From the IMG/VR virus record IMGVR_UViG_3300006133_000005, positions 1 through 64,000 of that record: a stretch of 64,000 bases of DNA; one strand, given 5' to 3'. Below are positions 10,730 through 61,354 of this stretch, one piece after another. Each line of letters starts with the position of its first letter. Within the stretch, counting starts at the first letter, position 1. Made by a program: the position numbers and the translations under genes. Below the pieces are notes generated by a model. It was not told the origin of the DNA. It made no database searches and was given only the letters and a program-made list of their open reading frames with translations. The stretch comes from a virus. Lineage: Duplodnaviria; Caudoviricetes.

Positions 10730-10903
10730 TTAACCTCTGCCTCTTTGGGTTCTGGTGGTTGCTGTGTTACCACCTCTTACCCTATTGATAGCATTTCTTA
10801 CTGTCTGGGTTACACGACCTATAATACCTCCTCTTCTCTGAGGAGCATTTCCGCTGGTATTTGACTTATTACCGTTTCTGGGCTGTGCATGAACAGTGAA
10901 CAC
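10730..10903 (-). CDS. Arg/Gly-rich basic peptide B with VHA leader
   Basis: AAGGAGGT RBS 7 nt before GTG at 10903 (the GTG at 10912 lies inside the RBS); FTVHAQP ... TTRTQRGRG. Confidence 0.75.
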   Translation of the reverse strand: MFTVHAQPRNGNKSNTSGNAPQRRGGIIGRVTQTVRNAINRVRGGNTATTRTQRGRG

Positions 10904-10929
10904 TTTGCTCACCTCCTTTATTTAATAGA

Positions 10930-10957
10930 AAACCACCACTTAACTAAGTGGTGGTTT
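10930..10957 (-). terminator. Intrinsic terminator between peptides A and B
   Basis: aaaccaccactta / taagtggtggttt stem with T tract on the minus strand. Confidence 0.7.
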
Positions 10958-10994
10958 GTGTTGGTAACTTCTTCTGTTGCAGAAAGAGTGTAGA

Positions 10995-11177
10995 TTAGCC
11001 TCTTCCTCTTGTTCTGGCAGTGTTAGTACCATTGTTGCCGCCACGCTGTACTCTTACTCTACGAATAGGGGAAGTCTGACCACTCTGGGTTCTTGCTGTA
11101 CCTACTACGGTACTACCACCACCGCCACCCTTACTCTTAGGCTGTGCGTGAACAACCATAGCAAAAAGTCTTTTCAT
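10995..11177 (-). CDS. Arg/Gly-rich basic peptide A with VHA leader
   Basis: GGAGGTG RBS then MKRLFAMVVHAQP ... TARTRGRG; paralogue of peptide B. Confidence 0.8.
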   Translation of the reverse strand: MKRLFAMVVHAQPKSKGGGGGSTVVGTARTQSGQTSPIRRVRVQRGGNNGTNTARTRGRG

Positions 11178-11287
11178 GCTATTCACCTCCATTTTAGTCC
11201 TTAAAGGGTACTTATGTAATTAGGTGTATGAGAGAGAATGAAGTAAACCTCAATACACTACCTTTAGACTATAACAATATTATACCC

Positions 11288-12874
11288 TTATTTGTCTTTA
11301 TTGTCAATAGAGTTGCAACAATTTCTGCCCGAAAAATTACAAACTGCATTTTTAAGACTATCATAATCCTTTATTTCAGAAAGGTCAATACCTGTTTTTG
11401 GTCTTTCATAGGCACAATTACCACAACCATATACTTTTCCGTCATAGTTTACAAAGATTGAGGTATAACCTGATGTACATACAGGGTCTAAGTCAAAACA
11501 TATAGGTCTATCAATGTACTGTGGGGTATCATATTTAAACATATCTGAGTACTTTTTAGTGAGATTCCTATACTTAAAAGGGATTGAGAACATCACCAAA
11601 GGTATTGGAAATTCAGATGAGACAACTTCATTTATAACAGAATCATACAAGTCCTCACTTATAGAGTAGCTCTTGTCACAACCGCCCCAGTCTTCAATAG
11701 GCTTTATGTATACTGATGATACACCTAATTTATGGAACTTAACAAGGAATTTATTAAGTTCAAACCAATTTTTATTGTGTAGGTCTATTGAAATAGAAAC
11801 TGGAAGTCCATTTTCAATAAGATATGTCAGTGTGCTATCCTTAACAGTAAAAGGTCGATAGGCACCTCCGTCAAAAGATACAGTAATTTCCTGTAGTGTG
11901 CTGTCAATTAAAGAGGGAGCATACTTATCAAGGTTCTTTCCATTTGTAATCATGCTGAAATATATATCTTGATAGTCTTTAAACTGCTCTAAAAGGTTTA
12001 TTACTGTATCATCAAATAGAGGTTCTTTTCCGAATATATCGAACTTCTTTATACCGAAACTGTAAAGCTTATATACAATATCTGGTAAAGACATTGTGGG
12101 TTTATCTGTGTGGTCTACACCTGTCATTAAGCAATAGGGGCACTTTAAGTTACAGCTATTATTTATGCTTAACTTAGCACTTGTAATCTTACCTCTTTTT
12201 CTTACAAGGTCTATACATTTGTCACCGTCACCCACTCTATGGTAAGTGTCCTCCAAATCATTAGAATCATCAAAGTACTCTGAATACTCAGAAATGAGTT
12301 GACAGTTAGAGCACATATCCCCCTCATTCTTTTCAGTTTTAAAGCAAGAGCAGAAGTCATTCAGTTTAATACCATACTTACGAGCCAGCATAAATATATA
12401 CTGTTTATCATAAGTAATAAACGGAGTACAAAACTCTAAATCGCATAGGCTCATAACCGCTGAAATCTTCTCAGAAAATTCAGCGGTAGCATCAGGGTAC
12501 GGGTCTTCGGGAGGTTTAATTATAGCACCATACACTTTCACAGCACCTATACTTTGTGCATATGATGTTGCATAAGATATAAAAATCATATTCCGCATTT
12601 CAAGGTATAAAGAATTATATGATTCCTCTGATTCGCTATCAACTATAGAGCTATTAGACCATTTAAATGGATTGATAGTTATTTCTTCCCACTTGTAACC
12701 CAGTTTGGTTGCTACATCTCGTGAAGCTTTTCTCTCAAATTCTAAAGCTTTTTGACCATAATCAAAAAACAGTGTATGTACTTCTACATTAGGAAACTTT
12801 TCATTTAAGTGGTGCATAAGTACAACACTATCTAATCCACCACTGTTGAGTGCTACTATCTTTACCTTATTCAT
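11288..12874 (-). CDS. queC: 7-cyano-7-deazaguanine synthase (QueC) fused to a radical SAM/SPASM-like domain
   Basis: N-terminal: LNSGGLDS, FFDYGQ, RNMIFIS, YPDAT, SCF...CSNC; C-terminal: CNLKCPYC, FGKEPL, ITNG, CTSG...DGKVYGCGNC. Confidence 0.85.
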   Translation of the reverse strand: MNKVKIVALNSGGLDSVVLMHHLNEKFPNVEVHTLFFDYGQKALEFERKASRDVATKLGYKWEEITINPFKWSNSSIVDSESEESYNSLYLEMRNMIFISYATSYAQSIGAVKVYGAIIKPPEDPYPDATAEFSEKISAVMSLCDLEFCTPFITYDKQYIFMLARKYGIKLNDFCSCFKTEKNEGDMCSNCQLISEYSEYFDDSNDLEDTYHRVGDGDKCIDLVRKRGKITSAKLSINNSCNLKCPYCLMTGVDHTDKPTMSLPDIVYKLYSFGIKKFDIFGKEPLFDDTVINLLEQFKDYQDIYFSMITNGKNLDKYAPSLIDSTLQEITVSFDGGAYRPFTVKDSTLTYLIENGLPVSISIDLHNKNWFELNKFLVKFHKLGVSSVYIKPIEDWGGCDKSYSISEDLYDSVINEVVSSEFPIPLVMFSIPFKYRNLTKKYSDMFKYDTPQYIDRPICFDLDPVCTSGYTSIFVNYDGKVYGCGNCAYERPKTGIDLSEIKDYDSLKNAVCNFSGRNCCNSIDNKDK

Positions 12875-12891
12875 TATAACTACTCCTTTAA

Positions 12892-13248
12892 TTACTTTGG
12901 CTTTTTCTTAAAGCCTTTCTTATTATTTTTCTTTGTGGACTTAGAACCACATTTAGACTTGTTACAAGACACTGTATATCCTCCCTCCTGTAGCTTAGAA
13001 CTTAGCATATTAATATACTCCAAATCCTCAGAAATCCTAATAAGACTTACCATAAGGTAAGTCTGTAGTTTCTTAGGGACAATTTTATGTATTGAAAGGT
13101 AAACCAAGTACTTTGCAGTGCTGTAGTTTTTAATATGTGTATGTCCTTGCTCAAAAGGCTTATGTGAGTTATGTACTATATAACCATATAAAGTCTCATA
13201 AATCTTAAACTGTCTGTTGCTATAAATCTGGTGACTCATTAAGCTCAC
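12892..13248 (-). CDS. Hypothetical protein with Lys-rich tail
   Basis: GHTH motif; C-terminal KKNNKKGFKKKPK. Confidence 0.7.
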   Translation of the reverse strand: MSLMSHQIYSNRQFKIYETLYGYIVHNSHKPFEQGHTHIKNYSTAKYLVYLSIHKIVPKKLQTYLMVSLIRISEDLEYINMLSSKLQEGGYTVSCNKSKCGSKSTKKNNKKGFKKKPK

Positions 13249-13252
13249 AACC

Positions 13253-13663
13253 TTATTTATTATTAAACCACTTAAATGGAAGATTGTACTTTACCATGAT
13301 TAAAGTCTTAGCCAATTGTTCAAGCTTTTGATGTTCCATTGTATCTACATACATTTGCTCATACAATCCGCTACCCTCTTCCCAGTTATACTTACAGTGT
13401 AAAAGTTCATGTACCAAAGTACACTCATCACACACCTTTGTAATAAACTCACTTCTCGCCTCATCAGGTATAACCGCAATGCGTATTAAACTACTTTTAT
13501 TTATGAACTCGAACTCATTTGTTCCTGCACATCCGTCTATATCTTGTTGTGGAACAAGTTTTGCTTTTATGTTCCAATCATTAAGGAACAATTTTTTCTG
13601 CCACCACTGAAGTGATTTCTGTAAAGTCTCCTCCGTGAACTTCATAATAGGTCCTTTACTCAT
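13253..13663 (-). CDS. Putative zinc metallopeptidase (HExxH)
   Basis: TLVHELLH; start codon overlaps the queE stop (TAATG). Confidence 0.6.
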   Translation of the reverse strand: MSKGPIMKFTEETLQKSLQWWQKKLFLNDWNIKAKLVPQQDIDGCAGTNEFEFINKSSLIRIAVIPDEARSEFITKVCDECTLVHELLHCKYNWEEGSGLYEQMYVDTMEHQKLEQLAKTLIMVKYNLPFKWFNNK

Positions 13664-14334
13664 TACATAACCCCCAAACACTTGTGCATCTGTATTTGTA
13701 CCCTGATATTAAAAAGTTTATCATCAAGTAACCATTGTACAAGGTCTTTTGCAACTGGACTAAAGTACTCTCCCTGTGAACGGTAATAAAAAACGGGACT
13801 CACAAGAATTTTTGCAGGAGTAGGGTATGTTTTAAGGACCTGTTTCATAAAGTCATAGTCATGTCTATTTCCTATAACGAATTTTACTTCGTCCCTCTGC
13901 TTTAACACCATAAGGTTTTCATAAATGTTTCTGTGAGAAACACCACTTGTAGGACATTTAATGTCCATTATAAATTTCAGCTTAGAGGGGTAGTAAAGGT
14001 CGGTAGGGATTTTAGTACAACCATTCGTCTCAATGGATACGTTACAGTCATAGTCCGAGATAAATTCAAGTGCAAGCTGATAGACCGCTTCCTGCTGAAT
14101 AAGTGGTTCACCACCAGTGATACAAATATTCTTGCAACCATACTTAACAACTTCTTGAACTAAATGCTCAACTGATATTTTATGTCTGTCCTTTTTAGTC
14201 TGGGGTTGGTCGCAGTAAGTACACGTCATATTGCAACCATATAGTCTTATAAAAACACAAGGCAGTCCTGCACCTGTGCTTTCACCTTGTATACTTAAAA
14301 ATACCTCATGGTAATAAAGAATACCCTCTGACAT
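13663..14334 (-). CDS. queE: 7-carboxy-7-deazaguanine synthase (radical SAM)
   Basis: FLSIQGES, CNMTCTYCD, ITGGEPL, IETNG, QMHK. Confidence 0.95.
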   Translation of the reverse strand: MSEGILYYHEVFLSIQGESTGAGLPCVFIRLYGCNMTCTYCDQPQTKKDRHKISVEHLVQEVVKYGCKNICITGGEPLIQQEAVYQLALEFISDYDCNVSIETNGCTKIPTDLYYPSKLKFIMDIKCPTSGVSHRNIYENLMVLKQRDEVKFVIGNRHDYDFMKQVLKTYPTPAKILVSPVFYYRSQGEYFSPVAKDLVQWLLDDKLFNIRVQIQMHKCLGVM

Positions 14335-14336
14335 AT

Positions 14337-14741
14337 TTATTCACCTCGATATTCAGCATAGCTATCTTCTGTCTCCCACAACTTGACGGAGTACACCTTA
14401 TAGTCACTGTTAGGGAGAATGTCCTCAGACAGCATATCATATATATGCACCGTCATTACTTCTGCTGTAGGTTGTGAAAAAAAGCTATTAAGATTAGAGT
14501 GGTCGTAAATATCGAGAATTTTATGCTTTACTCTCCTCTTAATATCACTAAAGTCGCACACCATAGCTTCTGTTGCAAGAGTTTCACTATTTATGGTGTT
14601 TGGGTCGATATTTCCTACAAATGTAACTTCGAGCTTGTAACTGTGCCCATGTAACTGAGAACACTTCCCCTCATAGTTATTGAGACGGTGACAAGCTTCA
14701 AATGTCATTCTTTTTGTTACATACACTTTTCTTTCTGCCAT
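14337..14741 (-). CDS. queD: 6-carboxy-5,6,7,8-tetrahydropterin synthase
   Basis: FEACHRL, LHGHSY, DHSNLN, PTAE. Confidence 0.95.
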   Translation of the reverse strand: MAERKVYVTKRMTFEACHRLNNYEGKCSQLHGHSYKLEVTFVGNIDPNTINSETLATEAMVCDFSDIKRRVKHKILDIYDHSNLNSFFSQPTAEVMTVHIYDMLSEDILPNSDYKVYSVKLWETEDSYAEYRGE

Positions 14742-14757
14742 AATATTTCTCCTTTAA

Positions 14758-15030
14758 TTACTGAATAACAAGATAAGCAACCATAACAGTTCTCTCTACC
14801 TCATCTTCTTTGATTTCATCAAATCCTGGCTTGATATAGAGGTCATGACCCTTAGTAGCTAAAATACCTCTTGCACTTGCAATAGCTTTGTACATTTGGT
14901 TTACTGCACTCGCACCCACACCTCTTACTTCTACATCACAACCCTCTTCAATACTGACAACAATACTGCCAGATAACTGAGGGACGGGGGACTTAGAAGA
15001 CACCTTAATTACTTTCCTTTTAGAGTTCAT
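14758..15030 (-). CDS. spoVS: Stage V sporulation protein S family
   Basis: KVSSKSP...GVGASAVNQMYKAIASARG...PGF; start moved to the ATG after the AAAGGAG RBS. Confidence 0.9.
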   Translation of the reverse strand: MNSKRKVIKVSSKSPVPQLSGSIVVSIEEGCDVEVRGVGASAVNQMYKAIASARGILATKGHDLYIKPGFDEIKEDEVERTVMVAYLVIQ

Positions 15031-15442
15031 TATCTTCTCCTTTCTGGTAACTTTCATAATTATTTCTGTAGTTACCTATTACTTTAGCTACAACAGCATC
15101 ACTCTTAAAAAGACCGTGCTGTCTGCTATCATAGCTTACTAATGTGTTATCACCTCTAAAGTCATAAAGAACGCCGTCGTTATGTGGATATATGTCCTTT
15201 AGTCTTTTTACAATGAAATAGGGACTTCCGTCTTCTTCATCTCTTAAGTGGATAACGTATATTTTACCTTTCTTGCACTTACTTCTGTTGAAATGAAACA
15301 GTCTTCTGCACCAAAGTAATCTCCCCTCTCGGAAAGTCGGGAACATGGAATCACCCTTGACTTTCACGATAGGGAATAAAAAAATTAGGGGGAAAACTGT
15401 TGTCACGACAACAAGAATAGTTATGACAACCTTAAATAACAT
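15020..15442 (-). CDS. Signal peptidase I-like (S26) protease, membrane-anchored
   Basis: N-terminal hydrophobic helix, GDSMFPT (catalytic Ser), IVKR (catalytic Lys), GDN...SYDSRQHG (box E). Confidence 0.9.
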   Translation of the reverse strand: MLFKVVITILVVVTTVFPLIFLFPIVKVKGDSMFPTFREGRLLWCRRLFHFNRSKCKKGKIYVIHLRDEEDGSPYFIVKRLKDIYPHNDGVLYDFRGDNTLVSYDSRQHGLFKSDAVVAKVIGNYRNNYESYQKGEDNEL

Positions 15443-15445
15443 AAT

Positions 15446-15898
15446 TTAATTACAGCCTTTCTCCAACAAAATTTTTGAACTATCTGCACATTCAAAGAAG
15501 TCCTCTAACTTCATTACTATGTAATCTTGTGAGCTGTTATGCTTGTGCATAATAACACAAGGTTTCTTATCCTTTGGACAATCACTTTCAGCTTGTCTAA
15601 GCCATGTAGGTAAAGACCACGTTTGAGCATTTTTGCATTCAACATGAAGCATTAAATCGACGTCCTTATCAGCTGATACAATGTCACCTCTGAACTCATC
15701 AGCTTTAACAGACTTCTTTGCAAATCCTCCGCTTTGCGGTGTGCGTACAAGGTCAATACCAAAGAACTCCTTAAACTTCTTTGCTACTGTTCGTTCAAAG
15801 CTTGCTCCCTTATTACGACTTCTTTTACCTCTTTTTCTGTTCTGTTCTTTAATTTCCTCTTTTGTGGGAGTGTTAGGTAATTTCTTCTTTAATTTCAT
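15446..15898 (-). CDS. PD-(D/E)XK Holliday junction resolvase-like nuclease
   Basis: SRNKGASFER, GDI, VECK, W..QA motifs. Confidence 0.8.
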   Translation of the reverse strand: MKLKKKLPNTPTKEEIKEQNRKRGKRSRNKGASFERTVAKKFKEFFGIDLVRTPQSGGFAKKSVKADEFRGDIVSADKDVDLMLHVECKNAQTWSLPTWLRQAESDCPKDKKPCVIMHKHNSSQDYIVMKLEDFFECADSSKILLEKGCN

Positions 15899-15989
15899 CT
15901 TTATTACTCCTTATAAAAATAGTTACAGGTCTGCTTTTTCGCTAACCTGTAACTATTGTACCACATTCACAAATAAAAAGCAACAGGAA

Positions 15990-16934
15990 TTATATTTTAT
16001 TATATTCCTTGTACTTCTGTAATGCTATATCTGCAACTCTTTTCATGTTAGGATGTGGACTTCCAGTTGTACCACGAGAACGAAGATTAAAGAAGTGTTG
16101 CCATTCTTCGTCATTTGCTGTCATGACAATCTGTGCTTTAGTATCTACTGGGAGAACACCTCTTGCAAGCTGTGGCTTAAGACCTTGTTTCGTGAGAAAT
16201 AAATAAGTCATTTCCGCAAATTCAAGTAGTTTTGTGTATGAGCATTTCTGAGCTTCATTCCATTCATCAAAAGTAGCTGGAGTGATAAACTCAATCTGAT
16301 TTTCAAACTTGTCTTTACTGTAGTTACAATACCTTGTACTCTCTTGTGAATAGCTTGCAGGTCTGTGTCTTACCATTTCATGAGTAACACCACGGTCTGT
16401 AATAAAGGATATTGTAGTGTAAAGGTGTTTACTAACCTCCTTTTTAGTAGGACTAAGGTCAAAAAATTCCTCTCTGGATAGAAGCTTAAATGACGGACAG
16501 TGTACCTCTTCGTCATACTCATTGCTGTCTTTATCAAGATTAAAATAACCCGAAAACTGAGGGTAAACTTTTTCAAGACATACCATTAAGCTAACAACTC
16601 CGCTTTCTTTAATAGCTCGGAGGTTTCCTGAGACTAAAATTCTGCTTGTATGCTTACCACCCTCACTTAAGAAATCGACCTGTGTGCAGTTAATATACTT
16701 TTTCTTAAAAACTGAGGAGGTAGCACAAGGAATATTAGTAATAGCCTCAAAGATAAAAGTTGCGTGTTCGAGAACAGAATGATGTCCACTTTTAACAAGT
16801 CCATTAAAGAACTTCTCAGCCGTTTCGGGTATAAGCTCACTATTAGACTTGTAACACACTCTTCCAATTTTCTCAATGTGTATAAAAGGGTCACTCATAG
16901 AAATGACCTCAGCACTTGAATGTGTAAACTTCAT
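15990..16934 (-). CDS. thyX: FAD-dependent thymidylate synthase
   Basis: GHHSVLEHA, RGVTHEMVRHR, SYSQESTRY, ARGVLP. Confidence 0.95.
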   Translation of the reverse strand: MKFTHSSAEVISMSDPFIHIEKIGRVCYKSNSELIPETAEKFFNGLVKSGHHSVLEHATFIFEAITNIPCATSSVFKKKYINCTQVDFLSEGGKHTSRILVSGNLRAIKESGVVSLMVCLEKVYPQFSGYFNLDKDSNEYDEEVHCPSFKLLSREEFFDLSPTKKEVSKHLYTTISFITDRGVTHEMVRHRPASYSQESTRYCNYSKDKFENQIEFITPATFDEWNEAQKCSYTKLLEFAEMTYLFLTKQGLKPQLARGVLPVDTKAQIVMTANDEEWQHFFNLRSRGTTGSPHPNMKRVADIALQKYKEYNKI

Positions 16935-16950
16935 TCTTTACCTCCATTTG

Positions 16951-17508
16951 TTACTTCCTTTCATTCTCGCTATCAAGGTTAATTAAAGAACCTGTAGCTC
17001 CTGTTTGACTCTGATACTTTCCACTGTAAGGAACTTTGCAGTCACTACTCATTTTACAGAATACAAGTTGTGCAACCCTTGTAAGGGGTTTTAGTAGTAT
17101 CGGGACTTCACTTGCATTAAACAGTTCAAGGGTAATCTGTCCCTCAAATCCCGGGTCAACCCAACCTGCATTCTGAACAAACAAACCCATTCGTCCTATT
17201 GAAGAGCGTCCCTCAACAAAGGCGGTGAAGTTGTTAGGAAGTTTTAAATACTCAACCGTAGTAGCTAAGATAAACTCATGAGGTTGTATAATGTACTCTC
17301 CTGAGAACTTTTCATACTCAACAGGCATATTAAAAGCGTTGTAGTTATCTGAATCCCCATAAAGTACACTTGTACTCGGTTTAAGAAATGTGTTTCCAAG
17401 TCTAACGTCTACACTTGCAGGTTGTATTCCGTTGTCAGAAACAGGGTAAACAAGGGGACTATCTTCAACCTCTATAAGAGCTTTTAACTCTTTGTCATTT
17501 AAAATCAT
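16951..17508 (-). CDS. dcd: dCTP deaminase
   Basis: QPASVDVRLG, GRSSIGRMG, AGWVDPGFEGQITLEL. Confidence 0.93.
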   Translation of the reverse strand: MILNDKELKALIEVEDSPLVYPVSDNGIQPASVDVRLGNTFLKPSTSVLYGDSDNYNAFNMPVEYEKFSGEYIIQPHEFILATTVEYLKLPNNFTAFVEGRSSIGRMGLFVQNAGWVDPGFEGQITLELFNASEVPILLKPLTRVAQLVFCKMSSDCKVPYSGKYQSQTGATGSLINLDSENERK

Positions 17509-17669
17509 TATTTCACCTCCTTTAATGGTTTTAATTTTTCAGACTGCTTTTGTCTTAAATAAATTCCAGCATTACCTAAAACACAATATGTGCATAAAGT
17601 ACCTGTTACTTCGCACATTGTTAAAGAGGGTTTGTTTCCCTCATTCACAATTTTTGCATATTCGCACAC
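17508..17669 (-). CDS. 53-aa Cys-containing protein, not in the ORF track
   Basis: GGAGGT RBS, GTG start, four Cys including CTYC; stop overlaps the dcd start. Confidence 0.6.
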   Translation of the reverse strand: MCEYAKIVNEGNKPSLTMCEVTGTLCTYCVLGNAGIYLRQKQSEKLKPLKEVK

Positions 17670-17682
17670 TATATTGACCTCC

Positions 17683-19110: not shown

Positions 19111-19158
19111 AGTTGTTACTCCTTTATTACAGCTTTATAGTGAAATTATTTTCACTCA

Positions 19159-19698
19159 TTAGTTTTTACCTACATTGTAATTTCTGTTTTCATCATCAAA
19201 ATCAGACGTTCTTCTTGATACTTCCCTGCTCAAAAGGAATATAGCATCTTCAATATTGGCTATGTTGTAAGTCAACAAGTCTCTTTTCTTACACCAGTCA
19301 ACGTATTCATAATAATGAGGTTTCACATCTGGCTCTGAATTTATAAGACGTTCCTTGGCAGTCTCAGAAAGCTTACTGCTGGATAGAGCTTTATATACCT
19401 TTTCACTTGAAACAACATAATTCCGCTTGGCATTTTCAAGTTCTATATCAACCCTACCTAATAGTGTTCTAAGATAAAGCTTCTGCTGTGTAAAAGCATT
19501 AAGAAACTCGCCCAATTCTCTTGAAGTAACCCCTGTAATCTGTGCAGGAAGCATTAAAAAATCTTCATTTATATTTAAATTCTTTCCTGCTTCAAAGAAT
19601 ACTACACCCCGAGTTTCAAGGTTATCTTCAAGGTTGTTTAAGTATGTCTTGTGTAATTCTCTTGGGTTCATTTTCTTTCCACTCTTAATCTGTTTCAT
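19159..19698 (-). CDS. Helical protein, possibly a UvsY-like recombination mediator
   Basis: Coiled-coil character and position in the recombination cluster; function is inferred only. Confidence 0.35.
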   Translation of the reverse strand: MKQIKSGKKMNPRELHKTYLNNLEDNLETRGVVFFEAGKNLNINEDFLMLPAQITGVTSRELGEFLNAFTQQKLYLRTLLGRVDIELENAKRNYVVSSEKVYKALSSSKLSETAKERLINSEPDVKPHYYEYVDWCKKRDLLTYNIANIEDAIFLLSREVSRRTSDFDDENRNYNVGKN

Positions 19699-53214: not shown

Positions 53215-53273
53215 TGTTACATCACCTCCATAACCTATGCTTAATACGATACACTACCGCTTTAAAATTCAGT

Positions 53274-53444
53274 TTATTTTCTTCTTGGTGATTTAGGTGT
53301 CTTTGGCATTTTTGGAGATTTGATAGAATCATTCTCCATTTTCTTCTGTGTCATTATCATTTTTACCCACATTCGCCTTTCTCGACTGGGAAGTCCCCAT
53401 ATTGTGTCTCTATCCCAATGGTACACATAAGCCAGTATGTGCAT
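53274..53444 (-). CDS. gpT-like C-terminal tail chaperone segment (-1 frame)
   Basis: MHILAYVYHWDRDTIWGLP..ERR.W; frame is open back through the slippery site at 53510-53516. Confidence 0.75.
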   Translation of the reverse strand: MHILAYVYHWDRDTIWGLPSRERRMWVKMIMTQKKMENDSIKSPKMPKTPKSPRRK

Positions 53445-53503
53445 TTCTTCAAGAGTGTTTCGGAAACTGAATTTTTTAGAAAACTCCCAATCAAAAAAGG
53501 TGT

Positions 53504-54373
53504 TTATATAAAATTTGTCTGATTAAGATTACCCTTAAAGTACTCTCCGCAGTGGTCGCACATAACATCAACTGTCATATCAATGCCAAACTGGTGGTCG
53601 TTAAGTAATGCTTGTAAGTAGTTTCTATCTCTTACTGAAAGACTTGCCATGACAGACTCATCAATGTAAGCGCCGTCGTCAAATTTACAAATTCTTGTAA
53701 GCAGTGTTGTCTCAGCTTTTGCAATGTTATTCTTTGCAAGAGGAGTGAGAAGTTCACCGTCAAGACCATTTGGTCTTCTCATGATACCTGTCTTATGCAA
53801 TACTCCCTTTCTGTCTTTATATCCTCTTGGGAGCTCAAATGGGATTTCACGCATACCATCAAATTCAAGGATATTCAGTTCATCAATTTCGACTTCTGTC
53901 TTTAACTTTGCCTTACACTCAGGGTTAGGACAAGTATGTGTCACTTCAATTGTATCTCCAATAGAAATTCTGCGGAGTTCAAGGAGCATAATGTCTCTAT
54001 CTCCTGTATACATCTCTTTAAAAATGTTCTCCCAGTCTTTCGGATTTCCTACAGACTTTCTTGTAAGAGTTCCAACACTTAGTACACAGCGAGAAAGAAG
54101 AGCAGTAGCAACTTTAGTACCGTTTGTCTTAATGTCTGAACGATTTACAAACTCTTCATCTGCACCTGTCATTTCACGCAGGGTAAATGTGGAATGTGTA
54201 ATTCCGTCTTTGTCAACATATCCTGCAAGGAGGTTGTACTCTTTATTTTCATCAAAACTTCCGTTGGTTTGCTCTTCTGCGAGAGCTTTAATAGAATCGG
54301 AATACTCCTTTTCTCTTTCTTTTTCAAGATTCTTTTCTTCCATGTTACTGTCAATTCTGCTTTTCATATTCAA
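53504..54373 (-). CDS. Tail assembly chaperone
   Basis: LREMTGADE, FELPRGY, CPNPEC and CDHC; lies between tube and tape measure. Confidence 0.8.
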   Translation of the reverse strand: MNMKSRIDSNMEEKNLEKEREKEYSDSIKALAEEQTNGSFDENKEYNLLAGYVDKDGITHSTFTLREMTGADEEFVNRSDIKTNGTKVATALLSRCVLSVGTLTRKSVGNPKDWENIFKEMYTGDRDIMLLELRRISIGDTIEVTHTCPNPECKAKLKTEVEIDELNILEFDGMREIPFELPRGYKDRKGVLHKTGIMRRPNGLDGELLTPLAKNNIAKAETTLLTRICKFDDGAYIDESVMASLSVRDRNYLQALLNDHQFGIDMTVDVMCDHCGEYFKGNLNQTNFI

Positions 54374-54413
54374 ATTCCTCCATTTAGTAATTTAGGCTAT
54401 AGCCTTTAACTCT

Positions 54414-54442
54414 ATTATACAGTAAAACCTCACAAATTGCAA
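54414..54442 (-). promoter_or_regulatory. Sigma-A promoter whose -35 overlaps a terminator hairpin
   Basis: TTGCAA-17bp-TATAAT. Confidence 0.65.
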
Positions 54443-54460
54443 TAATAATTTGTGAGGTTT
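54425..54460 (-). terminator. Terminator after the tail tube gene
   Basis: aaacctcacaaatt / aatttgtgaggttt 14-bp stem. Confidence 0.75.
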
Positions 54461-54484
54461 ATAAGTGTTTATTAAATTTCCAGT

Positions 54485-54964
54485 TTAATCTTCAAGGAAA
54501 TACTCAAACTGGATTGTGAGTGTTTCGATAGCTACATCATCAGAAGTAGCATCAAGGTCACTACTCTCCCACTTTGATACCCAAGCTTCTGCAAGCTTGT
54601 AAGTTCTTCCGGGATTTCCGAAACGGTCAAGATGTTCAATAACAATTGTCTGTCGGAAGTCAGGGTTTGTAAGAGTTTCCTTAATCAAGTCAGCAAGAGA
54701 AGAGTCCTGATAAGCGCCACGCTCACAAGTAACTTCACCTACTGTGGGTTTACCGGGGAGCTTGTGTGTGTACTCGTAACCACCCTCACCATACTCAGCA
54801 ACACCTACTTCAAGAGACAGCCCACTTACAGTCTGGAAACCCATTTCAGACGGAAGTCCAGGAATGGTAAGTCTGAAACGGAATTTCTGCAAAGGGTCAA
54901 GGGATGCTGTTCTTGCCGCATGAGTAGTCATAAACATCTTTTTAAGTGCATTAGTCATTTTCAT
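54485..54964 (-). CDS. Tail tube protein (T4 gp19/Afp1-like) with THA leader
   Basis: DPLQKFRF, SGLSLE...EY.EGG, KLPG, SDLDATS. Confidence 0.92.
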   Translation of the reverse strand: MKMTNALKKMFMTTHAARTASLDPLQKFRFRLTIPGLPSEMGFQTVSGLSLEVGVAEYGEGGYEYTHKLPGKPTVGEVTCERGAYQDSSLADLIKETLTNPDFRQTIVIEHLDRFGNPGRTYKLAEAWVSKWESSDLDATSDDVAIETLTIQFEYFLED

Positions 54965-54980
54965 AAATTACACCTCCCTA

Positions 54981-56450
54981 TTAAGCTGTTGTAAGTTCGT
55001 GAGAGATACGGAAGATAATGAATTCCGCAGGCTTCTTTGTAGCATACCCAATCTCACAGATAAGCTTACCTTGATTGCGGACACTGACAGGGTTAAGGTC
55101 TTCGTCACACTTAACATAGTATGCTTCACCTGCATTACCACCAAAGAATGCTCCCTGCTGATAGAGACTGTTGAGATAGTCCTGACAAGTCGTTCTGACT
55201 TTAGTCCACAGTGTGGAGTCATGAGGTTCAAATACAAACCGCTGTGTAAGGTCATAAATGTTCTTCTTAAGCGTGATATTCATGTACAAATCAGATACAT
55301 AGTTAAATTCGGGGTTACAGCTTCTTGCTCCCCATACACAGATACCATAATTGGTCTTAGGTAAAAGAGCATTAATGCCCTTTGGATTGAGGATATTTGT
55401 AGACTCAAGCGTGTAAATCTTCTGTACATCTACTGCACCCCTAATAACTGCTTCTGTTCCGGCAGGTGCTTTCCAGAAACCTCTTGAATCTGAAATACGA
55501 GAATAAACGCCACAGATATGACCACAAGCAGGAACAGCAATTAAAGCGCCGCTTGAAGACAGTGGATTTACAACTTTAATCCAAGGTGCATATAGTACAG
55601 CGTTCTTACCATCAAGCTCATTTCTTAATGTCTGTAGCATAGCATCTGTATCTGTTTCCTGACCCTCACAGATAGCAATCCGGTATTTATTAGCTGTACA
55701 GTAGTCAGCAACATCTACCTGTAAGGCGTTACTTGCACCGGGGATAGCAACAAGTCTGATGTCCTCCATAAAATCAAACTGTTTGAGTGACTCTTTATAT
55801 ACAGCATCAGGAACAGGAGCGCCACTTGTAGCAAGACCGTCTTCTCCACCTGCAAAATCAACCTTAATGTCAGCAGAGGGTTTATTTATCTGCTTAGTAA
55901 GGTCAGTAACCTTAATATAGTTGCTCTCAGAGTTGATAATATCTGCAAAGCAACCTTGAATGTTTACACCGTCTTTTAAATTACCCCAAGACTCAACAAC
56001 ACTTCCGTTGTACTTAACCTTAAGAGTAAAGACAGGTGGATTAACTTCGTCATTATATTCACTTGCTGGAATTTCAACGGAGATTTTATCTCCCCAAGCT
56101 CCCTCACTTTTTGCTTCAAATGCGACACCCGATACTGTAGCTTTAGCGGACTTAGCGTTATACGTTGATGCAGTCTTATCAGTTACACGCTGTACAAAAC
56201 ACCTAATACCACCGTTCTGGAAAAATCCGTACACAGCATATGCAAGCTTACTGTTTGCAAGGAAAGCAGAATCCTGTCCTGTTGCAAATGTGGTTAAATA
56301 AGAATTCCATGATGTAATGAGTACGGGAACTCCTACTGGTCCAGTTGCGGCTACACCTGTAAATGCGGCAATAGGAGCAGTACCTACAGGCATCTTAACA
56401 ACCTGTTTAATGTCCTCAACATATACACCGGGGGTTAAATATTCAGCCAT
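54981..56450 (-). CDS. Contractile tail sheath
   Basis: YLTPGVYVE, YAPWIKV, KAPAG, LNPKGIN, VWGARS, KPAEFIIFRI. Confidence 0.97.
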   Translation of the reverse strand: MAEYLTPGVYVEDIKQVVKMPVGTAPIAAFTGVAATGPVGVPVLITSWNSYLTTFATGQDSAFLANSKLAYAVYGFFQNGGIRCFVQRVTDKTASTYNAKSAKATVSGVAFEAKSEGAWGDKISVEIPASEYNDEVNPPVFTLKVKYNGSVVESWGNLKDGVNIQGCFADIINSESNYIKVTDLTKQINKPSADIKVDFAGGEDGLATSGAPVPDAVYKESLKQFDFMEDIRLVAIPGASNALQVDVADYCTANKYRIAICEGQETDTDAMLQTLRNELDGKNAVLYAPWIKVVNPLSSSGALIAVPACGHICGVYSRISDSRGFWKAPAGTEAVIRGAVDVQKIYTLESTNILNPKGINALLPKTNYGICVWGARSCNPEFNYVSDLYMNITLKKNIYDLTQRFVFEPHDSTLWTKVRTTCQDYLNSLYQQGAFFGGNAGEAYYVKCDEDLNPVSVRNQGKLICEIGYATKKPAEFIIFRISHELTTA

Positions 56451-56662
56451 TACTTATTAGCACCTCCTGATTTTTCTTTAGTGGACTTTGTTTCTGTAAC
56501 ATCTGTTAAAGAGACAATTCCTAATCTCTCTGCTTCAAGGAGTGCATCACTTACAAGGTCACCCTTGATAGTAACTGTCTCACCTGACTGTAAAGAGAGG
56601 TTAGTACCGTCTGAAAGAGTTACACTAAACAAATGTCCCCTGAGTTCACCTACTTTAGTCAT
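56450..56662 (-). CDS. Small hypothetical tail protein
   Basis: 70 aa, coupled to the sheath start. Confidence 0.65.
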   Translation of the reverse strand: MTKVGELRGHLFSVTLSDGTNLSLQSGETVTIKGDLVSDALLEAERLGIVSLTDVTETKSTKEKSGGANK

Positions 56663-56676
56663 AGTAAACTACCTCC

Positions 56677-57267
56677 TTAGGACTTTTTAGTTTGAATGTC
56701 AACCTCTTTTACAATGTTGACCTCGTTTAGCTTTTCAGCACTCTCTTCATCAAGCTCTGCCCAAATTCGATATGTCATTGATGTGCAATACACCCTACTA
56801 CCGTCTTTGAGTTTATCAAGCTTTCTGATATTACTGCCTTTCTGCAAACAGTGAGTATATCTTAGTACACCACCACTGTCCACAACAGGCAAGTTAAATT
56901 CTCGATTTACTTCAAACTCCCACAAAGCAGTCATGGCATTCATGTCGGTTTGAAGTGTACTCCACAAGTCAATTTGATACATTAATGAGTAGGGTACTGC
57001 TGTTCTCTCCATGTTTACTTTACCTGTTTCATAATTAAACCCTCTCGGAACTCTGAAAGGATAGTATCTAACTTCCTCTCGTCTGCTTATGTTAAGGTTA
57101 TATATAGTAACCATTGGATAGTTTTCTTTTTTGAAATCCTCATCAGCTTTCCTTACTCTGACGGGAACAGGAACTAAAAGTCCCTCACGATTTTTAAGCT
57201 GTACAACACTCTTAATGAATTTAATAAGACCTGCATCAATCTGGTCATACCAAACAGTTCCGTTCAT
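56677..57267 (-). CDS. Tail terminator (DUF4255/Pvc16-like)
   Basis: YPMVTIYNL, PYSLMYQIDLW; position before the sheath. Confidence 0.65.
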   Translation of the reverse strand: MNGTVWYDQIDAGLIKFIKSVVQLKNREGLLVPVPVRVRKADEDFKKENYPMVTIYNLNISRREEVRYYPFRVPRGFNYETGKVNMERTAVPYSLMYQIDLWSTLQTDMNAMTALWEFEVNREFNLPVVDSGGVLRYTHCLQKGSNIRKLDKLKDGSRVYCTSMTYRIWAELDEESAEKLNEVNIVKEVDIQTKKS

Positions 57268-57271
57268 TCAC

Positions 57272-57745
57272 TTAACCTCCCTTGATTAAGTCTTTCAAAC
57301 AGTTTTCCCAATGCTTTTTGATTGTGTTCTCTAACTCTTCAAAGGTGGGACGTATTAAGGGTCTTGCAGGAATGTTGGCTGTACCGTATTCAAGATAAAT
57401 CATAAGGTCACTAAACTTAAGTCCACTTGGATGTTTAGTCCATGCATCAGCACCTATAAAATAGGTTACCCCATTTTTAGGTGCTTTTACTTTTCGCACT
57501 TTCAGATTGTCTTTTAAGAAACCTGTTTCAACATAAATTGTCTCGTCACCACTTTTAAGAGATATTGTATGCTCTGATAGTGGTGTCCAATTCAAATCTT
57601 GTGCATCTATATGACCTCTTATCTTTTCAAGTATCATATCTCCGTCCTCTTTTAGCTGTGCAGAAAATGCAGGAACTATTTTAGAAGACAAAGCTTGTAA
57701 TACTATACCTGCTTTTGTCCAAGCACCAAACTTACTTATTCTCAT
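57272..57745 (-). CDS. HK97 gp10-like tail completion protein
   Basis: LEYGTANIPARPLIRP; start moved to MRISKF. Confidence 0.75.
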   Translation of the reverse strand: MRISKFGAWTKAGIVLQALSSKIVPAFSAQLKEDGDMILEKIRGHIDAQDLNWTPLSEHTISLKSGDETIYVETGFLKDNLKVRKVKAPKNGVTYFIGADAWTKHPSGLKFSDLMIYLEYGTANIPARPLIRPTFEELENTIKKHWENCLKDLIKGG

Positions 57746-57746
57746 A

Positions 57747-58205
57747 TTAATTACTCCTCTGCAATGAGTCTTTCTTTGCTTCTGTAGCGGAAAACTCAAA
57801 AAACTGCCAAATGTCGGCTACTAATGTAGAGGGTTCTACAGTATCTATTAAATACTCTGTCCCCTCATACACTAACTTTGCTTTTCTCATTTTCTCCCAA
57901 TCAGCTTCATGCAGGAAAGGTATTCCCAATGTTAAGAATTGTTTGGTTGGTACTCTGAACTTAGCTGTTCTGTCAACAGTTACTTCCTCGTCAACACCTT
58001 TTGGGTGACTGTATGTTACTTTAGCTATCAACTCATAAGGTTCAAGATACTTTTTCTTTGGAGTTTCACCATAAATATCATCTACTTCTGTGTCCTCCTC
58101 ATCTAAAAAGTAAAGAAACAAGTGGTTGCAAAGTAAAGTACTATACACCTCTTCGATACCGTCAAGGAATGCTTGTTGTATGTCATTGTTAGGTTCATAA
58201 GCCAT
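57747..58205 (-). CDS. Head closure / neck protein
   Basis: Position; YEGTEY.I. Confidence 0.5.
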   Translation of the reverse strand: MAYEPNNDIQQAFLDGIEEVYSTLLCNHLFLYFLDEEDTEVDDIYGETPKKKYLEPYELIAKVTYSHPKGVDEEVTVDRTAKFRVPTKQFLTLGIPFLHEADWEKMRKAKLVYEGTEYLIDTVEPSTLVADIWQFFEFSATEAKKDSLQRSN

Positions 58206-59050
58206 TACTCATCACCGCCCTCATCAGGTTTAGTGATTTCTATGTCAGTTGGCTCACATGTAGGTTCTTCACTCTCTTCATCAAAAGGCCCTGTCTCTAT
58301 TTCAGACTGTGCATACCCACAAAGAGTTGCCATATTAGTTGCTTGCACCGCTATATAGTACTTAGTCTTTTCTGCAAGACCTGTTACTCGGCAATGTACT
58401 TGGTGAATGTCTTTTATTTCAGCAACCATTTTAGCACCGTCAGCTATGTGAGACTTCAAATTAAACAAGTCTACAATAGGCTCTGTAGATATATAGACTT
58501 TATAACGGTAAAAACGACTTATGTTTTTCACACTCCACCAAAACTCTACTGAGTTTTCAGTGATAGTACCAACATAAAGAGTTACTTTAGGGACTGCGGC
58601 ATTCTCATAGTTATATCGAGTACCATAACGGTCACTCAATGTCACACTATAAGACTTAACTGTTCCTATTCCGTCTTCTCCACCGTTTTCTAACCAGTCA
58701 CCATACTCTTTGTCTGCTTGTGCTATCAACTTCATGTAGTGGTCGAATCTCTGTGACCGCTTCAAGTAGTTATTGTTATCAGCACCCATGTCAAACAGCG
58801 GAGCTTCTTTGACTGCAAGAGTGTAGTATAACTCTTTCTTTGCCAGAATAATGACACCATAAACAGCATCTTCCGGCAAGTACTTAAGTGAGGGAGTATC
58901 AGAATAGTTCCTTGACATGGCAAGATTTAAATAGAGCAATAAGTCCTCATCAGTCATACACAAATACTGTGGGTCTTGCACTGTTATCTTGTCCTTGTCT
59001 TGAACATAAACTGATATTCTTAAAAACTGTATCATTTGCTCAACCGTCAT
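58205..59050 (-). CDS. Head-tail adaptor with C-terminal fibronectin type III domain
   Basis: PKVT...W....YKVY...VTGL..KTKYYIAVQA. Confidence 0.6.
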   Translation of the reverse strand: MTVEQMIQFLRISVYVQDKDKITVQDPQYLCMTDEDLLLYLNLAMSRNYSDTPSLKYLPEDAVYGVIILAKKELYYTLAVKEAPLFDMGADNNNYLKRSQRFDHYMKLIAQADKEYGDWLENGGEDGIGTVKSYSVTLSDRYGTRYNYENAAVPKVTLYVGTITENSVEFWWSVKNISRFYRYKVYISTEPIVDLFNLKSHIADGAKMVAEIKDIHQVHCRVTGLAEKTKYYIAVQATNMATLCGYAQSEIETGPFDEESEEPTCEPTDIEITKPDEGGDE

Positions 59051-59069
59051 AGTTGAGAACACCTCCTGT

Positions 59070-59396
59070 TTACAGGGGTTTCAAAAGACCTGACTTATTG
59101 AGAATGTCCTTTACTTCCTGTGGGACTACTATCTGTACTCCCTTTTTCAGAAAGTATCTTGTACCTCCGATACAGCAGGTGTGGTTAGTGTTAGGGAGAA
59201 TTTTTACGTTCTTCACCGCAGGCTTCTGTTCAATTGTCTCATTAACAGTTACCTCATCTACACCCTCAACGGAGTTTTCAACAGGATTTTCAACACCCTC
59301 TGTTTCGCTGACATTTGTAGTTACTTCTTCCTCTGGTGTGGAAGTTTCCATAATAGTTGCACCATTAGTCTTAGGCTTAAACTTACCTGTAGCCAT
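59070..59396 (-). CDS. Hypothetical head-associated protein
   Basis: Acidic low-complexity N-terminus; follows the capsid gene. Confidence 0.6.
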   Translation of the reverse strand: MATGKFKPKTNGATIMETSTPEEEVTTNVSETEGVENPVENSVEGVDEVTVNETIEQKPAVKNVKILPNTNHTCCIGGTRYFLKKGVQIVVPQEVKDILNKSGLLKPL

Positions 59397-59443
59397 AATT
59401 CTACTCTCCTTTCTACATTATTACTTCTGAGATATTTTACGGT

Positions 59444-60493
59444 TTAGGCAGTAACGATTACAACACCGTACTCATCATGGAGCTTACCTACACCAAAGAT
59501 AGAGTACCACGCAAGACTTCTCTTTCTGCCGAAGTCTTCAACACCGTTATCACGAAGCTCAACAGGAAGACCATATGCAATGCCGTAATAAGCATCACCG
59601 AAAAGAACAGCTTTATACTTATTAACATCACCCTTTAACTCCTCATCATATGCAGGGTCGTCTTCTGGAGCGGCACCATTACACATAAGAGTTGTTTCAA
59701 TAAAGCGGCAGTCGTCAATTCTTCCGATTTCACCTGTAAAGAGCTGTTCGGGTGCGCCATAGTTAGAAGCATTAACCCAAGCTGGGTCGTCACGCAGAGT
59801 TCTTGACTGGTGAGGATGAACAAAGCAAACCCAATAAGTACCACCGACAGCTTTAGGGGCATTGTTTGTAGAAAGAATTTCGATAGCATCTTTAATTGTA
59901 GACACCTTAAGAATAGATGTAGCATCAAGACCTGCCATAGTAGTATTCTTAGTACCGTCAGACTTAGAAGCATAAACAATATTTGTACCAGACAGAGCCG
60001 CATCCCTTAACTCACAGTCAACAACCTGTGCATAGTCACGACCAAGAAGTGTTGTAGCAGAAGCCAGTACATCATCAAAAGAAGTCTGTACAAGCAATTC
60101 ACTTACAGAAACAGCGTTACCATACTCAGTAACAGTGAGCTGTTTTGCAGAACCGCTAAGAGCCTGTGTAACCATAGACTTAGCTTCTTCAAGCTTGCCG
60201 CCGAGTGTAAGGTTGTTATATGTAAGCATAGAAATAGTCATACCCGGTTCTGTGCCGAGTTCAGTCTTTGTAGTAGCAAACTGCATAAATCGCATATTAG
60301 GGAGAGCCTTAAACTCAATCTCCTTAGAGTAAACAGTTCTGATTCCCTCTGTGAACTGAGTACCGCCGTTTGTCTTCCCTAATTCAGTAGCAACGCTTAA
60401 ATTGGGTGCGTAGACTGTACCTCCGGAATTGGTTTCTGCATGAGCAGTCGTAAACAAACAACTTAAAAATGTCTTAATAAACTTCTTATTCAT
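59444..60493 (-). CDS. Major capsid protein (N4-gp56 family) with AHA leader
   Basis: EYGNAV, FVHPHQ..LRDD, GEIG..DD.RFIET, DFGR...AWY...G. Confidence 0.92.
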   Translation of the reverse strand: MNKKFIKTFLSCLFTTAHAETNSGGTVYAPNLSVATELGKTNGGTQFTEGIRTVYSKEIEFKALPNMRFMQFATTKTELGTEPGMTISMLTYNNLTLGGKLEEAKSMVTQALSGSAKQLTVTEYGNAVSVSELLVQTSFDDVLASATTLLGRDYAQVVDCELRDAALSGTNIVYASKSDGTKNTTMAGLDATSILKVSTIKDAIEILSTNNAPKAVGGTYWVCFVHPHQSRTLRDDPAWVNASNYGAPEQLFTGEIGRIDDCRFIETTLMCNGAAPEDDPAYDEELKGDVNKYKAVLFGDAYYGIAYGLPVELRDNGVEDFGRKRSLAWYSIFGVGKLHDEYGVVIVTA

Positions 60494-60535
60494 TTTATAA
60501 ATTCCTCCATTTATATAGTATTAAATGCTCAAGTC

Positions 60536-61354
60536 TTACTTAAGACCTAAACTCTTGCGAAACTCCTTGTACTCGTCAGAAGCAGGGTCAAGATTTCTCA
60601 CATACTCAGCATCAAATCGTCCTGTATCTGTTCCTGCATTTTCTGTAGGATTCATAACAGGGGGCTTCTTTACTGTAGGCTTAGCGGCAGTTCCTTTATT
60701 GTGCGAACCACCAACAGGGTTTCCGTTATCATCAACAAGACCAAGTTCTTTCTTAATTGAAAGGGACTTCTCTTTTGCCTTTGCTACAGAAGCATCAATT
60801 TCTTCTTTGGTACTGCCTATAATGTCGTCAAGGAAAGATGTAAGTACAGTCTCTTTATTAGCCGCTTTCTGTTCTGCAAGATAAGACTTAACTTCATACT
60901 CCTTTTCAATCTCTGCCCTTAAAGCCTCAACATTGGGAGTTTCCTTTTTCAGCTTTTCATTTTCAGCAATAAGTACATCAATCTGTGCATTGAGTTTCTT
61001 CACTTCCTCTGTGGTAATAGCACCACTCTTGTAAGAGTCAATCTCCGCAGTTAAAGTATTGACAGTCTGTGTCAAGTCCCCAATCTTAATGAGGTTGTCA
61101 TTACCTGTCTTAACAAGCTTTGCGTTATCCTCTTCAAGCTTCTTGATACGAGGGTAAAGCTTTTCTTTCTCCTCCTTACGAGCCTGTGCTATAAGCTGTT
61201 CATAATTAATCTGAGGTGTTGCAGTACCACCACTGTTTCCATCATCTGGAACAGGGTCCACCTCATCAGCGTGTACATTCATACACAAGAAAGATAATGC
61301 TTTACTCAATACACTTAATTTCTTTTCTGCTATAATACCTCTTAAATTACTCAT
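60536..61354 (-). CDS. Capsid scaffolding protein with VHA leader
   Basis: Coiled coil, EKEKLY motif; lies between portal and capsid. Confidence 0.8.
   Translation of the reverse strand: MSNLRGIIAEKKLSVLSKALSFLCMNVHADEVDPVPDDGNSGGTATPQINYEQLIAQARKEEKEKLYPRIKKLEEDNAKLVKTGNDNLIKIGDLTQTVNTLTAEIDSYKSGAITTEEVKKLNAQIDVLIAENEKLKKETPNVEALRAEIEKEYEVKSYLAEQKAANKETVLTSFLDDIIGSTKEEIDASVAKAKEKSLSIKKELGLVDDNGNPVGGSHNKGTAAKPTVKKPPVMNPTENAGTDTGRFDAEYVRNLDPASDEYKEFRKSLGLK

Follow-up and report, generated by a model that had tools for sequence, protein, structure and literature searches.

How are the structural proteins of a tailed phage matured when its genome carries no recognizable prohead protease? The question is raised by IMG/VR virus record IMGVR_UViG_3300006133_000005 (Duplodnaviria; Caudoviricetes), of which positions 1 to 64,000 are the stretch analysed here and are referred to as the window. 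The source record is complete, a 77,739-bp circular assembly with a 55-bp end overlap, and the window is its first part. In this genome the major capsid protein (MCP), a putative scaffolding protein, the tail tube protein and two small basic proteins begin with short leaders that end in Ala, and an intact gene encodes a miniature homologue of type I signal peptidase (family S26). Taking leaders off virion proteins is a well-established point of control during phage assembly; to our knowledge it has so far been ascribed to specialized prohead proteases, with one exception in which a host ribosomal protease is hijacked. An earlier note on this DNA had proposed that the S26 enzyme serves as a general virion maturation protease. 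Every check named there that computation can address came out in its favor, and the proposal is upheld in part, by the co-occurrence of enzyme and leaders, by the lack of any other detectable candidate protease, by the add-on character of the tube leader, and by an unusual distribution of charge in the enzyme. On balance we somewhat favor the view, drawn from sequence, that the phage's own miniature, probably cytoplasm-facing signal peptidase removes [AV]-x-Ala leaders from the capsid, scaffold, tube, and basic proteins.

Short leaders on unrelated virion proteins

The leader-bearing proteins and their leaders are the following; an arrow marks the predicted cut.

59444–60493, minus strand: MCP, HK97-type, 349 residues (phrog_1357 major head protein, E = 2e-56; PF13252)
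60437–60493, minus strand: MCP leader, 19 residues, MNKKFIKTFLSCLFTTAHA; predicted cut before ETNSGG; matrix score 15.8
60536–61354, minus strand: putative scaffolding protein, 272 residues, coiled coil, between portal and MCP; homologues in relatives, no Pfam family
61268–61354, minus strand: scaffold leader, 29 residues, ending FLCMNVHA, LSKALSFLCMNVHA↓DEVDPV; predicted cut before DEVDPV; matrix score 18.4
54485–54964, minus strand: tail tube protein, 159 residues, T4 gp19 family (PF06841, E = 3e-30)
54917–54964, minus strand: tube leader, 16 residues, MKMTNALKKMFMTTHA; predicted cut before ARTASLDP
10995–11177, minus strand: basic Arg/Gly-rich peptide A, 60 residues; leader MKRLFAMVVHA at 11145–11177; predicted cut before QPKSKG
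10730–10903, minus strand: basic peptide B, 57 residues, GTG start; leader MFTVHA at 10886–10903; predicted cut before QPRNGN

All five leaders described in the earlier note are present at these positions. Their last three residues are encoded by varied codons (GCT CAT GCA, GTA CAC GCT, ACT CAT GCG, GTT CAC GCA, and GTT CAT GCA), and a strong ribosome-binding site, GGAGG, lies 8–9 nucleotides upstream of each start. Only the start codon of peptide B, a paralogue of peptide A, has had to be corrected, from ATG to GTG. The tripeptide [VAT]HA occurs eight times in the whole proteome, six times within the first 40 residues of a protein.

Every position of the 77.7-kb genome, read in six frames, was scored with a position matrix trained on the sites of relatives only. 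Ranked in this way, the scaffold site is first, the MCP site second, the tube site eighth, and the site of peptide A tenth. Scores at the level of the tube and of peptide A are also reached in non-coding frames, and both of these sites need other support. Chance origin of the leaders on the three virion proteins is excluded. The peptide A site by itself does not rise above the noise of the non-coding frames, and it is its conservation in relatives that rescues it. Two further matrix matches, at 54278 (..SIKALA↓EEQ, in a baseplate-like protein) and at 75966 (..LNAKA↓EI), score at the level of non-coding frames and were rejected as not conserved or not N-terminal. A sixth leader candidate, ..PMTAHA↓LEE in the gene at 64998–66359, was also discarded: it lies internally, at residue 36, the N-terminus is conserved upstream of it, and relatives read PMTAKE.

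The motif was defined from 77 distinct sites on the MCP, scaffold, and tube proteins of relatives. Its consensus is hydrophobic(−7)-x-hydrophobic(−5)-[KNTR]-[AV]-x-Ala, numbered from the predicted cut. Position −1 is Ala in 76 sites and Gly in one; position −3 is Ala or Val in 74 (55 Ala, 19 Val) and Ser in one. Position −2 is Phe (26 sites), Tyr (21), or His (16), which together account for 82%, and is otherwise Lys, Leu, Met, Asn, Glu, or Ser. Phe, Leu, or Ile is found at −7, Leu, Ile, or Met at −5, a polar Lys, Arg, Asn, or Thr at −4 (63/77), and Asp, Ala, or Glu at +1. The shared [VAT]-H-A leader of the earlier note is therefore real as a common leader, but its rule is better written [AV]-x-Ala with an aromatic preference at −2; His at that position is a local habit of this sub-lineage. 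Type I signal peptidases follow a −3/−1 rule that calls for small residues at both positions. Because the leaders combine a small Ala at −1 with Ala or Val at −3 and a variable −2, their motif corresponds to the rule of signal peptidase I.

Conservation within each protein family is concentrated at the same residues. In an alignment of 21 MCP sequences Ala19 is invariant and Ala17 nearly so, and the remainder of the leader is variable; the scaffold leaders of some 40 relatives end in [AV]-x-A followed by Asp or Glu and then Glu. All MCP relatives at 59% identity or more bear leaders, as does that of the Bacillus cereus phage BCD7, at 55%. Distant MCP relatives, at 50% identity or less and including that of the Streptomyces phage BRock, begin directly at the mature sequence.

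The tail tube provides an indication of where the leader ends. Leaderless tube homologues begin M-[AGS]-R-T, as in MARTIANDP or MARTSAEDP. Tubes that bear leaders read ..HA↓ARTASLDP, ..YA↓SRTI.., ..ITAKA↓MSRTIADDP (relative L040), or ..QVHA↓MARTSAEDP (relative L130), so that the general pattern is ..x-A↓[ASV]-R-T. Since the leaderless proteins start at the M[AGS]RT that follows it, the conserved Ala is the last residue of the leader, and a cut after it would recreate the native N-terminus of the tube. The comparison confirms the earlier view of the tube leader as an extension, added in front of the native M[AGS]RT..DP start.

The leaders have the small residues at −3 and −1 that are expected of Sec-type signal peptides and lack the core of about 10–15 or more uninterrupted hydrophobic residues after a basic n-region. 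Those of the basic peptides are only 5–11 residues in total, and the cores of the MCP, scaffold, and tube leaders are interrupted by Lys, Arg, Asn, or Thr.

A search of relatives with peptide A as query returned no homologues, and its equivalents were found by position and composition. Directly downstream of QueC, every relative readable in that region encodes one or two Arg/Gly/Asn-rich proteins of 50–60 residues with a tiny leader: MPRNAYA↓ in relative G001, MMKAYA↓ in G009, MATPAYA↓ in G013, and MFIINAYA↓ in L151. Relative G016 has two copies, both starting MKVFA↓TS. Basic peptides with leaders of 5–11 residues thus lie beside queuosine genes in at least six lineages. They are conserved genes that bear the same tag as the virion proteins, and they share a gene block with the S26 gene. 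Leaders of five or six residues, such as MKVFA and MFTVHA, cannot span a membrane.

A miniature signal peptidase and its retention with the leaders

The enzyme is encoded by a short gene:

15020–15442, minus strand: minimal type I signal peptidase homologue, 140 residues (PF10502, E = 2.6e-9; 37.7 bits against a cut-off of 22.9)

It consists of an N-terminal hydrophobic helix (residues 2–22) and a catalytic domain with Ser32 in GDSM, Lys79 in VKR, and the box E sequence GDNTLVSYDSR. That the gene is intact, as the earlier note had held, is evident from the Pfam match above cut-off and from the invariance of Ser32, Lys79, and GDN..S.DSR in homologues. An alignment of 18 sequences, reaching down to 29% identity, shows residues S32, M33, P35, T36, K79, and R80 of boxes B and D and residues G97, D98, N99, S103, D105, S106, and R107 of box E to be invariant, together with the FP that ends the N-terminal helix. 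An AlphaFold2 model has a pLDDT (predicted local distance difference test) of 84, and its best PDB match is Staphylococcus aureus SpsB (4wvj, E = 2.6e-4). The top Foldseek matches are the SpsB entries 4wvj, 4wvg, and 4wvh (E about 3e-4, probability 1.0), with human SEC11 and Escherichia coli LepB next in line.

A profile search of 1.8 billion representative sequences retrieved 1,430 proteins at E ≤ 1e-10, and the best 150 of these are all 87–166 residues long. At least 150 clusters at 50% identity share the miniature architecture. Two family members sampled outside the original set both lie in a PDDEXK–S26 neighborhood, to which contigs of sufficient length add SpoVS and Que genes. These proteins appear to constitute a large and coherent family of miniature phage signal peptidases. 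A pattern search of IMG/VR built from the S26 alignment found one contig only, its patterns being too narrow, and a search of the genome contigs with SpoVS as query gave no match. Predicted complexes of the peptidase with MCP residues 1–60 scored 0.00 with an uncertain fold of the partner, which is evidence for neither side.

The phage enzyme resembles the S26A peptidases LepB, SipS, and SpsB in its Ser/Lys dyad, in boxes B–E, in its predicted SpsB-like fold, and in the single N-terminal membrane helix that is directly followed by the substrate-binding strand; the small −3/−1 specificity expected of such an enzyme matches the leaders. It differs from them in its miniature size, the phage enzymes being only 105–150 residues long, and in its presumed substrates: these are virion proteins of the cytoplasm, with leaders that lack the length or the hydrophobicity of Sec signal peptides. 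A normal signal peptidase faces outward and could not reach capsid proteins in the cytoplasm. The positively charged side of a membrane protein is, by the positive-inside rule, the cytoplasmic side, and charge was compared between the best 150 representatives of the family and three host signal peptidases from the metagenome-assembled genomes (MAGs) in which relatives of the phage are binned. In the phage enzymes the tail before the helix has a median length of two residues and, in 78% of 146 members, contains neither Lys nor Arg; the net charge of the catalytic domain is positive in 88%, with a median of +5. In contrast, the host enzymes carry two or three Lys/Arg before the helix, and their catalytic domains have net charges of −6 to −14. 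Applied to this reversed bias, the rule predicts that the N-terminus lies outside the cell and that the catalytic domain is cytoplasmic. The topology is thus probably inverted relative to S26A, with the active site facing the cytoplasm at the inner membrane surface.

Exported proteins, for which a phage might need a private signal peptidase, are almost absent from the genome. The only clear candidate is the product of 71148–71792 (L127), beyond the window, whose N-terminus, MKIKLILFFMSMQVLLYLVCSA↓NN, resembles a true signal peptide or a lipoprotein signal.

Each of the 17 clade records spanning the S26 region has both leaders and enzyme, as the earlier note would predict: this genome, BCD7, 11 IMG/VR contigs, and four contigs from MAG bins. 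Neither the leaders without an S26 gene nor an S26 gene without these leaders was found among the relatives. Of the 18 IMG/VR contigs that bear leaders, 11 have S26, among them every one of the five with a completeness of 90% or more, and the gene is found in each of the four MAG bins containing a relative. The seven leader-bearing contigs that lack it are 46–75% complete and also lack the adjoining SpoVS gene; the S26 region is therefore simply missing from them. In BCD7 a 148-residue "putative signal peptidase I" has a SpoVS gene next to it, and among 50,697 cultured phage records searched BCD7 alone has an S26 homologue. No S26 gene was found in ten more distant MCP relatives with a family-specific profile for which a positive control was included. 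Eight of the ten are metagenome contigs without a leader; two of these reach a completeness of at least 90%, one being put at 100%. The others are Streptomyces phage BRock, complete and likewise leaderless, and Bacteroides phage BS162P1, represented by a partial record. The PDDEXK–SpoVS block is not present in the leaderless relatives, which consequently give no information on insertion of S26 there. Between branches the peptidase is only about 30–37% identical with its catalytic residues fixed, and retention through such deep divergence adds weight to a putative link with the leaders.

If the favored reading holds, the capsid protein, the scaffold, the tube protein, and one or two Arg/Gly-rich proteins would be made as precursors with a short N-terminal leader that is hydrophobic at −7, −5, −3, and −1, carries polar or aromatic residues between these positions, and ends in [Ala/Val]-x-Ala. 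The 140-residue Ser32/Lys79 peptidase, anchored in the membrane by its one N-terminal helix, probably with its catalytic domain facing the cytoplasm, would bind the leader as an extended strand, accommodate −1 and −3 in small pockets, and cut after Ala. The mature proteins would then begin with ETNSGG for the capsid, DEVDPV for the scaffold, ARTASL for the tube, and QPKSKG and QPRNGN for the two peptides, and the enzyme would replace the prohead protease that the genome lacks.

Other proteases, uncut leaders, and the case against

A prohead protease would be the conventional agent. With such enzymes the phages HK97 (gp4, S78), T4 (gp21, S77), and lambda (C, S49/ClpP-like) cut off the N-terminal parts of capsid, scaffold, and internal proteins, and T4 also trims small internal peptides by way of a short targeting leader. 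Prohead proteases are unrelated in fold to S26, are encoded between portal and capsid, and are packaged in the prohead; none is found here. The order portal, scaffold, MCP bears out the earlier statement that no such gene lies in that interval, and models of S78, S77, ClpP, and S49 matched nothing at E ≤ 10 when the complete 77.7-kb genome was searched, so that a canonical prohead protease elsewhere is not in evidence. The tube, moreover, is a presumed substrate here, and an enzyme confined to the prohead could not reach it. An open reading frame with an HExxH motif (HELLH; 13253–13681, 142 residues) was considered as an alternative protease and set aside, having no Pfam family and being present in only one of four relatives.

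Prp is a host cysteine protease that, in Firmicutes, trims the N-terminal extension of ribosomal protein L27. It could cut the leaders one residue earlier, between the aromatic residue and Ala, leaving the phage S26 enzyme to some other job. This explanation, which the earlier note had overlooked, is live but weaker, and we judge it quite improbable. Phage 80alpha supplies the precedent: its capsid and scaffold proteins are cut between Phe and Ala by host Prp, it too is without a prohead protease, and other staphylococcal phages carry a Prp motif on the capsid or major tail protein (PMC5744158). The two systems are alike in that short N-terminal leaders occur on the same classes of self-assembling virion protein in phages of Firmicutes, with Ala adjoining the scissile bond and, before it, hydrophobic residues that alternate with others. 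That the hosts here are Firmicutes is indicated by the phage SpoVS gene, by the infection of B. cereus by BCD7, and by MAG bins assigned to Clostridia/Bacillota, and three of the four MAG bins contain both Prp and a long L27 (..IQLFA[HK]KKG). Where they differ is in the motif and the enzyme. In 80alpha the host cysteine protease (C108) cuts F↓A within LxLQ(F/L)F↓A, a motif copied from L27, whereas in this phage the Gln is absent, conservation lies at −1 and −3, the cut would fall after Ala, and the candidate enzyme is a serine peptidase, encoded by the phage and unrelated in family to Prp. In L27 the motif reads MLxx(D/N)LQ(F/L)F'A (PMC9405229); S. aureus Prp fails when the P3 Gln is changed to Ala or Glu, and it buries the Phe residues at P1 and P2 (PMC9261936). 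The residue equivalent to P3 is Gln in 0/77 leader sites. P2 would be Ala or Val, Phe stands at the P1 equivalent in just 26 of the 77, and P1 would be Lys, Glu, Ser, Asn, Met, or Leu in 18% of sites and His in 21%. Conservation is strongest at −1 and −3 rather than at this P1, and the tube alignment assigns the Ala to the leader. In addition, the Clostridia MAG G029, which holds relative L130, has a short L27 beginning MAHKKG (L146, G029:C5) and no detectable Prp; if the bin does mirror the host, a member of the clade would infect a Firmicute that lacks Prp, although binning is weak evidence of host. The L27 extensions of two MAG bins (..NIQLFAHKKG and ..DIQLFAKKKG) are unlike the leaders of the relatives binned there. 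A Prp model has no match in the complete phage genome.

One relative, G016, stands apart. The leader of its MCP (L041 8549–9523, L042 9914–10888), MSKTFNFNLQTFA↓D, copies the L27/Prp motif (NLQTFA) and still fits T-x-A. Its scaffold (..TVTVFA↓DE) and tube (..LKVSA↓SR) keep the usual tag of the clade, and a miniature S26 gene is present. The MSKTFNFNLQTFA leader may hint at an evolutionary link between the Prp and S26 systems.

It is also conceivable, if unlikely, that the leaders are kept as permanent amphipathic helices or assembly tags, or are cut by another protease of host or phage, while an outward-facing S26 enzyme serves elsewhere, for example on an exported protein of phage or host or in the manipulation of sporulation with SpoVS. 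The S26 gene is translationally coupled to the nuclease and SpoVS genes, about 40–46 kb from the head and tail genes, and one possibly secreted phage protein does exist (71148–71792, ..LVCSA↓NN). Homologues of the MCP in Bacteroides phages bear a leader without an S26 gene, and 80alpha can do without cleavage but requires the scaffold leader for assembly (PMC5744158). An invariant Ala at −1 and Ala or Val at −3, on four unrelated families and across deep divergence, nevertheless have the look of a cleavage site rather than of an amphipathic helix. Host signal peptidases already serve exported proteins, the charge bias of the S26 family is opposite to that of outward-facing enzymes, and the small presumed substrates are encoded in the same gene block as the peptidase.

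Several observations weigh against the signal peptidase as the maturation enzyme. We infer cleavage itself, the part of S26 as its agent, its topology, and the role of the membrane from sequence. The topological argument draws on the positive-inside rule alone and on a small control set. The co-occurrence of leaders and enzyme is perfect but has a single clade origin, and counts as roughly one event. The gene lies in a DNA-metabolism block beside SpoVS, outside the head module. Bacteroides phage BS162P1 (L084 8971–9969) and contig MT835482 (L150, about 2980–3975) have MCP homologues, 39% identical, with a different and strongly hydrophobic, signal-peptide-like N-terminus of 25 residues that ends T-S-A; their scaffolds are leaderless and neither record encodes S26, so that leaders on this capsid lineage can exist without the enzyme. 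Two features of the leaders themselves suit Prp: they share hydrophobic residues at P6, P4, and P2, an aromatic P1 (82%), and a near-invariant Ala at P1', and the L041/L042 MCP leader, FNFNLQTFA, is plainly L27-like. In favor of the signal peptidase, residues −2 and −3 of the three substrates, which are unrelated proteins, match within a genome beyond shuffled expectation (0.35 vs 0.21 at −2; 0.75 vs 0.49 at −3), in a test that ignores phylogeny and shared ancestry: all are of VHA type here and in G001, and in L040 each reads ITAKA. Such agreement would be compatible with a recognition factor that evolves with the phage.

Gene layout and implications

Nearly all genes, including every leader-bearing gene and the S26 gene, are encoded on the minus strand. 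The late region runs from the large terminase through an SPP1-type portal (61452–62981), the coiled-coil protein in the scaffold position (60536–61354), and the HK97-type MCP (59444–60493) to further head and connector genes, the sheath (54981–56450), the gp19-type tube (54485–54964), the tape measure, and the baseplate. Small Lys-rich or acidic open reading frames lie beside the scaffold and MCP genes, here at 59070–59396 and in BCD7 as gp102 (L081 7993–8145), and all are leaderless. A separate, earlier block holds the 7-deazaguanine pathway, a PDDEXK nuclease, the S26 peptidase, and a SpoVS homologue. The immediate neighbors of the peptidase gene are

14758–15057: SpoVS, with its likely start at ATG 15030; overlaps the end of the S26 gene
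15446–15898: PDDEXK_15 nuclease; its stop lies 3 nucleotides before the S26 start

and the tight order of nuclease, miniature S26, and SpoVS is kept in all clade members examined, including BCD7 and distant contigs. In the same block, 11288–12874 encodes a fusion of a QueC and a radical SAM domain whose C-terminal tail is rich in Cys; the gene clusters with FolE, QueD, QueE, and a 688-residue protein (7538–9604) without a Pfam match. A spore-forming Firmicute host is indicated both by the SpoVS gene and by the MAG bins in which relatives occur (Candidatus Fimenecus, Clostridia, Bacillota).

The closest cultured phage is B. cereus phage BCD7 (Becedseptimavirus), whose MCP is 55% identical. Its scaffold (..FMTVHA↓EE), MCP (..FQNVFA↓DA), and tube gp092 (..FMNVHA↓DS) carry the same kind of leader; it differs in its larger genome (93.8 kb) and in a second tube paralogue that is leaderless. 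A literature search found no N-terminal data for BCD7 virions. A search for a phage signal peptidase acting on capsids likewise returned nothing relevant, and no description of such a system was found.

A broader proposal, which we advance tentatively and regard as rather doubtful, is that an inside-out signal peptidase, acting on head and tail proteins and on basic proteins associated with DNA, is the general maturation protease of a large clade of Firmicute myophages and that the amphipathic leaders bring the proteins to the inner face of the membrane, licensing assembly there. If the enzyme does act on cytoplasmic virion proteins, S26 would add a new class to the virion maturation enzymes and would be the first homologue of signal peptidases to work on the cytoplasmic side of the membrane. 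Its action would explain the presence of leaders on tail tubes and on tiny Arg/Gly-rich proteins, and the leader would offer a defined cleavage tag for phage engineering. The S26 family is not rare, and its cultured member, BCD7, makes the idea directly testable.

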